Virus record (IMG/VR): IMGVR_UViG_3300045988_166471
Location: 2,366 to 66,365 of that record
DNA length: 64,000 nt
Source of the DNA: a virus
Direction: 5' to 3' (one strand)
Part shown: piece after piece, positions 55,729 to 56,233 of the stretch
Layout: each line of letters starts with the position of its first letter
Position numbering within the stretch: position 1 is the first letter of the stretch
Translations under genes and position numbers: made by a program
The notes under the pieces: generated by a model
Seen by the model: the letters and a program-made list of their open reading frames with translations, nothing else
Database searches by the model: none
Told to the model about the DNA's origin: nothing

Positions 55729-56233
55729 TTAAGTGTGCCTAGAACCGTAATGACTAGAGCATCCATGAGATGAACACCAGGTTTGATTAACTCCTGACCA
55801 ATAGGAAGAATGATAACCTGAACCATCATGAGAAGAATTATAAGAAGTATCCCATCCTGCTCCATAATCAGAACTATCCCAACTACTATTATATCCACTA
55901 CCTCTATGACTAGCGTTATAACTTGCATCATGAGCACAGGTATCATTTATACTTCTAATTGTAGTGGTAAATCTATTAAAAATAATAGGACTAATTAAAT
56001 CTCCTGCTGAAGGAGGATTTTCACTAATATTTGCTCTTGAACCAACATAACTGCTGCTGGAAAAAGATTCTATATACTTATTTAAATTCTGAGCTAATTG
56101 AGCCATAGCTTGTGTTGACTATCCTCCAGGAGTCGCTTGAAAATCACTCTAACTAGGGAAAAATTTTTTTCTTGCGGTATTTAAATTAGTAAAAATAGTC
56201 TAAATATCACTCCAATTTATTTTAGAGTTTGAA
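55729..56233 (-). CDS. Candidate RiPP precursor: about 60-aa leader-like N-terminus with three TAGs, then Ser/Gly/Tyr/Trp/His/Asp-rich low-complexity C-terminus
   Basis: Strong RBS GAGGAGG plus ATG 56231-56233. C-terminus SHRGSGYNSSWDSSDYGAGWDTSYNSSHDGSGYHSSYWSGVNQTWCSSHGCSSHYGSRHT. Flanked by radical SAM genes on both sides. Confidence 0.5.

Follow-up and report, generated by a model that had tools for sequence, protein, structure and literature searches.

The window analysed here, a stretch of 64,000 nucleotides of viral DNA (IMG/VR record IMGVR_UViG_3300045988_166471, positions 2,366 to 66,365), carries among genes for radical S-adenosylmethionine (SAM) enzymes a gene for a 171-amino-acid (aa) protein with a low-complexity, aromatic- and Ser-rich tail, hereafter the target. 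We conclude that the target is probably the substrate of a conserved, phage-borne modification cassette resembling the pathways to RiPPs (ribosomally synthesized, post-translationally modified peptides), with a small protein in the place of the 'precursor'. The gene is real and conserved and reads TAG as glutamine, and its product is no short peptide but a protein with a folded domain of about 105 aa. The initial annotation of this DNA had proposed the low-complexity open reading frame (ORF) as a precursor for the neighbouring radical SAM enzymes, a proposal to which conservation of the family, invariant linkage to two radical SAM genes and a leader/core pattern lend strong support from sequence comparison. 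The resulting picture is that of an uncatalogued family, comprising at least 109 clusters and associated with a fixed enzyme set, in uncultivated TAG-recoded gut phages.

A recoded gene with a conserved head and a hypervariable tail

The low-complexity ORF lies on the minus strand with its stop-inclusive end at 55729, contains exactly three in-frame TAG codons, as had been stated, and has a tail identical, in the correct frame, to the one originally quoted. Translated in that frame the target reads MAISSNSKINWSDI*TIFTNLNTARKKFFPS*SDFQATPGG*STQAMAQ... and ends ...SHRGSGYNSSWDSSDYGAGWDTSYNSSHDGSGYHSSYWSGVNQTWCSSHGCSSHYGSRHT*. The 5' part of the gene required correction: the start had been placed at 56233, which is not codon-aligned, and the ATG is at 56244-56242. 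The GAGGAGG ribosome-binding site is present as described, at 6 nt from this ATG and not at the 15 nt given for it, and the 'ordinary' N-terminal part, thought to span about 60 aa, extends over about 105. The domain occurs once in the window.

The window has a GC content of 29% (39.5% in the tail), and the long ORFs found in it, of which nearly all are minus-strand, are continuous only with TAG as a sense codon. TAG positions of the target pair with CAA or CAG Gln codons in homologues, and the reverse pairing is also seen; therefore, TAG encodes Gln. As many as 14 internal TAG codons are found in a RecJ-like gene (754-2496) and 19 in a tail-fibre-like gene (37915-41463), so that recoding is not confined here to late genes; the notion that the target is a late gene because it contains TAG was set aside, given that the replication genes of the window are also rich in TAG. 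No suppressor (CUA) tRNA was found in the window, in which tRNAs for Gly, Tyr, Gln (UUG), Pro and Thr were identified. Gene calling under the standard code reduces the target to its last 125 residues (ORF 55729-56106) and fragments the adjacent enzyme genes, which makes the cassette easy to overlook.

A scenario named at the outset as fatal to the proposal, namely translation of another frame, for example by read-through from the neighbouring radical SAM gene, is excluded because the frame is continuous with a conserved N-terminal domain, varies in length by whole codons and has its own ATG and ribosome-binding site. A translation artefact or an alternative frame was also rejected by homologue comparison, codon-level substitution ratios and analysis of the +1 frame. 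The overlapping ORF at 55722-55946 had reasonably been labelled an artefact, but it is in the +1 frame of the tail on the same strand and not in the opposite one; its 74-aa hydrophobic product (MIPVLMMQVITLVIEVV...) may mislead gene callers. Of the seven relatives tested, six lack stop codons in the +1 frame of the tail; the locus L020, whose tail is of the phenylalanine-glycine (FG) type, has one, and the longer gene of locus L010 has seven. It stays open because the tail uses NNT- and NNC-rich codons, that is, as a by-product of composition.

Seven close homologues of the target, 54-98% identical to it, are near-invariant over the first ~105 residues (the N-domain), and their tails vary in sequence and, by whole repeat units, in length. 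In a codon-level comparison, the N-domain had a ratio of nonsynonymous to synonymous substitutions (dN/dS) of 0.1-0.3, indicating purifying selection, against 0.75-0.9 in the tail. When 1.84 billion representative proteins were searched with an N-domain profile, it retrieved 109 clusters at 50% identity, almost all with the same helical N-domain, thereby ruling out the lack of conservation that would have spoken against the initial proposal. The shared architecture is a domain of ~100 aa followed by a low-complexity tail, and the consensus of the domain is MAxSxxxxxxWSDIxxLYTxLNTARxKF...PxxGxLIxP...TIxxIxNxCxxD, with W11, D13, L21-N22 and P78..G81 among the invariant residues. AlphaFold (AF2) predicts a helical bundle for it with moderate confidence (predicted local distance difference test, pLDDT, 71). 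A Foldseek search with the N-domain against BFVD gave no match at E <= 0.001; the top-ranking entry was a phage protein that is uncharacterised, with TM 0.66 and E 0.14. The N-terminus of the target (MAISSNSKINWSD) has no hydrophobic signal segment, and the target matched nothing in Pfam, NCBIfam, PHROGs or PADLOC.

The tail of the target consists of 29% Ser, 14% Gly and 26% Tyr, Trp and His, with no Leu, Ile, Lys or Glu at all, whereas in the proteome Leu, Ile and Lys account for 8-9% each and Glu for 6.7%; 11 of its 16 aromatic-to-aromatic gaps measure 4-5 residues (p = 3e-5, shuffling). Both composition and spacing are far from chance. Pooled family tails contain 20% Ser, 14% Phe, 12% Asn, 12% Gly, 6% Asp, 5% Tyr and ~4% aliphatics, show a peak of aromatic spacing at 4 (400 observed versus 188 shuffled) and are depleted in adjacent aromatics. 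The tail is disordered and made up of units of the type [Ser/Gly]-Ser-[aromatic]-[Asp/Asn/Arg/Gly]; the most frequent units are FNSS, FGNS, YDSS, FDSS, FRSS, YNSS and HRSS. Aromatics make up at least 15% of 97 of the 103 tails that are at least 25 aa long, Cys at least 10% of 11, and a Cys marks the boundary between domain and tail in 80 of 98 members. The conservation of the 'aromatic triads' anticipated in the initial annotation thus extends to periodicity and composition, but not to individual positions. Such a union of a conserved head with a repetitive, hypervariable tail is the pattern classically shown by leader and core.

Two variants depart from the common layout. Five members (P0074, P0081, P0090, P0094 and P0112) are circularly permuted, with N-terminal repeats and a C-terminal domain; a gene of this type lies at 8827-9522 of locus L018. 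Another member, P0013 (373 aa; 507-1628 in L010/L011), has a tail of NGFRSSDF-type repeats that ends in a Hint/intein-like domain (CLIPGT...IIVHN; a weak match to Pfam Intein_splicing), which suggests that in that lineage the modified tail undergoes release or ligation by autoproteolysis.

A cassette of fixed order

To compare gene order, the proteins of the window cassette were mapped onto six-frame ORFs of related loci, which represent 10 independent lineages: the window with L001, L003, L006, L010, L014, L015 (the same DNA as L016), L017, L018 (permuted type), L019 (Cys-rich type) and L020 (FG type). In the window, the order is radical SAM-glycosyltransferase family 2 (GT2) fusion, target, the radical SAM enzymes rSAM_A and rSAM_B, the small protein p85, U32-like paralogues 3 and 2, a glycosyltransferase family 8 (GT8)-like protein, a 248-aa protein and U32-like paralogue 1 (Table 1). 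The order target, rSAM_A, rSAM_B is kept in all 10 lineages, and the linkage holds for members that are only ~30-40% identical and have wholly different tails. A small protein follows rSAM_B in the nine lineages where the contig continues, and two U32-like paralogues come after it in eight, again wherever the contig continues, with a third present in six. Eight of the ten lineages have the radical SAM-GT2 fusion close to the target; L010 and L019, which lack it, are short contigs. As the initial annotation had it, the target thus lies between radical SAM genes, one upstream and two downstream. Taken together, synteny and dN/dS point to the two attributes expected of a RiPP precursor, adjacency to modifying enzymes and the union of a conserved recognition part with a variable one. 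Since the permuted members keep the rSAM_A, rSAM_B and U32-like genes downstream, the enzymes would accept the 'leader' before as well as after the repeats. In L017, three radical SAM-GT2 paralogues accompany a second target copy that is preceded by its own small ORF (2242-6080, 13538-15532 and 15922-16302); the module is duplicated within this genome.

Table 1. Positions in the window of the target, the cassette proteins and a second radical SAM/repeat-protein pair
Feature	Coordinates	Strand	Remarks
p107 small protein	58300..58623	-	upstream of cassette
Radical SAM-GT2 fusion, ~667 aa	56222..58225	-	start uncertain, probably GTG 58225; overlaps target start
Shine-Dalgarno GAGGAGG	56251..56257	-	6 nt upstream of target ATG; read from sequence
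Target gene, 171-aa putative substrate/precursor protein	55729..56244	-	TAG = Gln at codons 15, 32, 42; stop TAA 55729-55731
N-terminal conserved helical domain, aa 1-106	55927..56244	-	up to ...INDTCAHD; putative leader (docking) or functional domain
C-terminal low-complexity tail, aa 107-171	55732..55926	-	Y/W/H every 4-5 residues amid Ser/Gly/Asn/Asp; putative modified core
rSAM_A, divergent radical SAM, 477 aa	54275..55708	-	own ribosome-binding site AAGGAG; 20 nt after target stop
rSAM_B, radical SAM/SPASM, 456 aa	52905..54275	-	always after rSAM_A
p85 small protein after rSAM_B	52655..52912	-	homologous in window, L003, L006, L020, L018, L015, L017
U32-like paralogue 3	51804..52652	-	TIM barrel, conserved Cys
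U32-like paralogue 2, 310 aa	50861..51793	-	
Glycosyltransferase family 8-like, 211 aa	50266..50901	-	accessory; besides the window only in L001/L002 and L018
248-aa protein	49517..50263	-	conserved in L001, L002, L006-L008
U32-like paralogue 1, 291 aa	48610..49485	-	
CXXX-repeat radical SAM maturase	24548..25846	-	TIGR04115, 381 bits versus cut-off 350
CxxxC-repeat protein, 286 aa	23685..24545	-	N-terminal CxxxC repeats (CSGGCSGTCTTAC...); C-terminal domain of ~150 aa

This fixed order bears on another account of the tail, namely that it is an unmodified, disordered, aromatic-rich region that forms condensates or a matrix in the manner of 'sticker-spacer' or FG-repeat sequences, its proximity to radical SAM genes reflecting co-regulation only. 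Regularly spaced aromatics amid Ser, Gly and Asn are the known sticker-spacer pattern, and the tails match it; some are near-indistinguishable from nucleoporin-like FG repeats (GNSSFGNSGWGFGNSGFG; P0060, P0070), and evolution at individual tail positions is near-neutral. Co-regulation, however, fails to explain an invariant order with overlapping or abutting frames in at least 10 diverged lineages, or the retention of the same enzymes where tails are Cys-rich. We consider this account highly improbable.

The two stand-alone radical SAM enzymes are very divergent. In rSAM_A, the CX3CX2C motif (CNLNCKYC, residues 20-27) is accompanied by four invariant Cys, and Pfam Radical_SAM is matched at 1.7e-7. 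For rSAM_B, which forms at least 193 clusters at 90% identity, the Pfam match is weak (E 0.0018), as is that to the SPASM model TIGR04085 (E 0.003, below the model cut-off); the radical SAM motif (CNQKCDYC; C41, C45, C48) is invariant in five lineages, and the SPASM set is complete, with C313, C331, C378-x2-C381-x5-C387-x3-C391 and C410 all invariant (CX2CX5CX3C). Nearly all NCBIfam matches of the two enzymes are to peptide-modifying families (CbpB, YhhB, PapB, nif11-type, XyeB and the quinohemoprotein maturase), and the weak matches of rSAM_A are to peptide maturases only (CbpB, YhhB, PapB). Single-sequence searches of the PDB with rSAM_A or rSAM_B gave no match and profiles were needed; the best solved relative of both profiles is TigE (8VPO), with E-values of 7.6e-7 and 0.024, respectively. 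The third enzyme, the fusion, carries the CxxxCxxC motif HCNLQCNNC and has radical SAM and GT2-type (NodC, TuaG) NCBIfam matches, and its homologues match both Radical_SAM and Glycos_transf_2 of Pfam. Neither p85 nor the 248-aa protein matched any family in the library scans. In relatives, one or two fast-evolving small ORFs lie directly upstream of the target; they are conserved in position, with similarity confined to sub-lineages.

The U32-like paralogues of ~300 aa have more than 200 homologues and combine a TIM barrel of the U32 type, modelled with high confidence, with a conserved multi-Cys (Fe-S) motif: four Cys, including a CX3C pair, are invariant, with the spacing C-x30-C-x3-C-x24-C. 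The Pfam U32 model (PF01136) is matched below its gathering threshold (best E 0.038, in 3 of 13 members), and precomputed matches are faint or limited to few homologues; profiles of the paralogues matched no PDB sequence, and only the fold comparison gave a relation. We know of no U32 protein that acts on a protein substrate. In U32 proteins, Cys motifs of this kind hold 4Fe-4S clusters, and two such proteins, UbiU and UbiV, are O2-independent hydroxylases of aromatic rings that take the oxygen from prephenate (PMC6747719, PMC10990095). In the comparison with the U32 Fe-S hydroxylases (UbiU/UbiV, RlhA, TrhP) and the U32 peptidase Mk0906, the Cys spacing of the paralogues was different from CX6CX15CX3/4C.

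That U32 was first described as a peptidase family, with three paralogues in the cassette, favours a different role for the tail, as a multi-core precursor or scaffold whose units are modified and then excised by the U32-like proteins to give many copies of an aromatic-derived peptide, cofactor or toxin, as for pyrroloquinoline quinone and the ustiloxin-type or WprA-type products. The repetitive units and their variable copy number fit such a role, TigB and WprA offer examples of repeat precursors whose processing gives identical units (PMC10878394, PMC12957482), and one family member ends in the Hint/intein-like autoprocessing domain described above. But the units of the window tail differ (YNSS, WDSS, YGAG, WDTS, HDGS, YHSS), so that excision would yield a heterogeneous mixture; those U32 proteins with conserved Cys clusters that have been characterised act as hydroxylases, not as proteases (PMC6747719); and neither an exporter nor an immunity gene was recognised in the cassette. 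Altogether, multi-core excision appears quite unlikely.

The glycosyltransferases of the cassette open another route, on which the target would be an O-glycosylated, Ser-rich structural or adhesive protein comparable to bacterial serine-rich repeat glycoproteins, the radical SAM and U32-like enzymes making or tailoring an unusual sugar and GT2, GT8 and, in relatives, a PIG-L protein decorating Ser. The tails contain 20-29% Ser, the GT2 domain fused to radical SAM recurs in eight of ten lineages, GT8 is found in the window and in L018, which also has a PIG-L deacetylase, and sugar-tailoring radical SAM enzymes exist, the fusion itself weakly matching BlsE. In the window lineage, moreover, the cassette is just downstream of tail-fibre-like genes (ALK_LTK_GRD and Laminin_G_3). 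Such a neighbourhood suggests a particle-associated role, but is itself not conserved, being missing in L014 and L017, for which reason we also set aside a reading of the target as a tail-fibre accessory. What the tails strictly conserve is not Ser alone but aromatics (or Cys) at regular intervals; the inseparable partners of the target are the two stand-alone radical SAM enzymes, whose only relatives are peptide maturases; and GT8 and PIG-L are sporadic. The GT8-like protein matches Pfam Glyco_transf_8 at 3.7e-5 (23.9 bits, just below the gathering cut-off of 24.3), and the extra tailoring genes comprise the PIG-L family deacetylase (L018, 18401-19096) and a ThiF/E1-like adenylyltransferase (L020, 8259-8987). 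A purely O-glycosylated protein is thus unlikely in our estimate; this explanation overlaps with substrate maturation, of which glycosylation may be one of several tailoring steps.

A possible maturation pathway and its setting

If the target is indeed the substrate of the cassette, its N-domain would dock it onto the maturases, either directly or via the small partner p85; we infer docking because an N-terminal RiPP-recognition domain would not fit into either rSAM_A or rSAM_B. The radical SAM enzymes would then proceed along the tail and act on each repeat unit once, with cyclophane-type C-C or C-X cross-links between aromatics and side chains, or oxidation of Ser, as candidate reactions. 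The U32-like proteins could add O2-independent ring hydroxylations or, with lower likelihood, cut between units, and the GT2 domain, together with GT8 in the window lineage, might glycosylate Ser or the new hydroxyls. The product probably remains a modified protein, given that no signal peptide, exporter or leader protease is encoded, and would stay on the N-domain in the infected anaerobic host until lysis or else enter particles. A bolder version, possible but doubtful, is that in large TAG-recoded phages infecting anaerobic bacteria of the gut two novel radical SAM enzymes, three U32-type Fe-S hydroxylases, which would here have a protein substrate for the first time, and the radical SAM-glycosyltransferase form a self-contained, O2-independent pathway from the periodic aromatic/Ser tail to a cross-linked, hydroxylated (3,4-dihydroxyphenylalanine- or quinone-like) and glycosylated polymer that serves the phage as a new kind of effector; such a polymer could be an adhesive or armour of the particle, or the counterpart of the HxsA 'gatekeeper' (see below), blocking rival phages or host defences.

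Several observations weigh against maturation of the target by the cassette. The matches of rSAM_A and rSAM_B to peptide-maturase models are at the superfamily level (15-29 bits versus cut-offs of 340-519), and no RiPP-recognition domain is obvious in either enzyme. The U32 assignment rests on a modelled fold and faint Pfam matches, and the N-domain, with its moderate model confidence, has no informative fold neighbour in the PDB. Library scans of the cassette recognised no transporter or exporter and no dedicated leader protease. A tail dN/dS near 1 could also fit a mere disordered linker kept for its composition, the glycosyltransferases would fit a plain O-glycosylated Ser-rich protein equally well, and Gly at the +2 position after the aromatic, in ~15% of units, misfits a uniform C-beta cross-link of the type found in triceptides.

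The target system was not found in the databases or literature searched. Among deposited phage genomes (INPHARED), there was no match by megablast of positions 52000-60000 or by tblastn of the target, a typical N-domain and an rSAM_B relative, and phage-encoded peptides or proteins matured by radical SAM enzymes are almost absent from the literature searched. Locus L016 comes from an assembled genome, that of Clostridiales Family XIII bacterium PM5-7, and the same stretch is a 114 kb IMG/VR viral contig; other family contigs reach 100-230 kb. An S-layer-bearing host of the Firmicutes type is hinted at by a secreted protein of the window (35782-36918, minus strand) that carries two S-layer homology (SLH) domains, and an SLH protein is likewise encoded in L003. 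Why gut phages, the longest contigs of which measure ~100-230 kb, devote ~10 kb to maturing one small protein is a question that the cassette raises. For enzymology, it offers two very divergent radical SAM enzymes with an obvious, repetitive candidate substrate amenable to mass spectrometry, and it lets the activity of U32-type O2-independent hydroxylases on protein side chains be probed.

Elsewhere on the minus strand of the window, an 829-aa protein matches MVP_shoulder (7e-20) and Vault_3 (4.5e-9) and adjoins a DUF7788/DUF2828 protein (30752-33241 and 33820-35358); such a vault-like protein, with Major Vault Protein domains, is unusual in a phage. A flotillin-like coiled-coil protein is encoded at 26251-27321. 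Just downstream of the cassette (45496-48395, minus strand) are tRNA genes for Tyr, Gln, Pro and Thr, along with two zinc-ribbon proteins that by eye are HNH-like (45496-45912 and 46386-46955) and a protein that by eye is GIY-YIG-like (47748-48395), giving this region the appearance of a tRNA island rich in homing endonucleases.

Comparison with known systems

The closest analogues of the cassette are the HXS system, the triceptides, TigB/TigE and the CXXX-repeat system, and the best among them is HXS. In this recently described defence system, which blocks DNA entry, an effector composed of a folded domain and His-Xaa-Ser repeats (HxsA) is encoded with the radical SAM enzymes HxsB and HxsC and the small protein HxsD, and the modification has been mapped to SHRSS (PMC13128918). 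Both systems join a folded domain to short-period repeats rich in Ser and in aromatic or imidazole side chains, and both have two radical SAM enzymes with a small partner; HRSS and HRGS are among the recurrent 4-mers of the target family, and the window tail contains SHRGS. By all models tested, however, the cassette falls outside the HXS system, as it does outside the triceptides, the TigB/TvgA-type precursors and the CXXX-repeat system. Neither the target nor two HRSS-rich relatives match the HxsA model (NCBIfam, E <= 1), p85 does not match HxsD, and neither rSAM_A nor rSAM_B matches HxsB or HxsC, the only relation being a weak match of the radical SAM-GT2 fusion to HxsC (32.7 bits versus 267.9). 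A signal peptide and a peptidoglycan-binding domain are both missing from the target, and no more than 15 of the 103 tails contain at least two H-x-S units. Whereas HXS is a bacterial defence locus, the target family is phage-encoded, its tails are mostly built on Phe and Tyr, and its cassette adds the U32-like trio and glycosyltransferases.

Triceptides (XyeA/XyeB, GrrA/GrrM, YhhA/YhhB, ChlB) share with the target family a conserved leader and a variable core; their precursors have tandem aromatic-X-X motifs, in each of which a radical SAM/SPASM enzyme makes one cross-link. The resemblance does not extend to the models of their maturases, YhhB scoring 24.7 bits against rSAM_A and 16 bits against rSAM_B (cut-off 445) and XyeB 15.5 bits (cut-off 450). 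Aromatics recur in the target family with a period of 4-5 instead of 3, with Ser (26%), Gly (15%), Phe (12%) and Asn (9%) at position +2 from the aromatic. The 105-aa folded 'leader' and the pairing of two radical SAM enzymes with U32-like proteins likewise set the target family apart.

In the TigB/TigE and TvgA/TvgB systems, which yield poly-cyclopropylglycine RiPPs and have TIGSVS or TVGG repeats, a tandem-repeat precursor is modified unit by unit, TigE forming methyl-cyclopropylglycine on each unit of TigB (PMC10878394). TigE is also the nearest solved relative of the radical SAM enzymes of the cassette, but the similarity is limited to the radical SAM core, the Val and Ile targets are near-absent from the tails, and the Tig and Tvg precursors are only ~60 aa long.

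The CXXX-repeat system (TIGR04115) likewise pairs a target of period 4 with a dedicated radical SAM/SPASM maturase, and 11 members of the target family are Cys-rich. However, neither rSAM_A nor rSAM_B belongs to TIGR04115, the target tail has only two Cys, and the dominant repeat residue is aromatic. The window itself encodes a genuine pair of this kind (Table 1), with a similar pair at a different place in L006 and L007; homology of the target to the non-repeat domains of the CxxxC-repeat proteins of the window and L006 was rejected (hhalign probability <1%). The window phage therefore carries two radical SAM/repeat-protein systems, of which only the CXXX-repeat one belongs to a catalogued type.

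Compared with known repeat precursors matured by radical SAM enzymes, the target is unusual in its phage location, its 105-aa folded 'leader', its aromatic/Ser units and the accompanying U32-like trio. By analogy, the precedent of HXS makes a role of the cassette in phage-phage or phage-host conflict a testable possibility.

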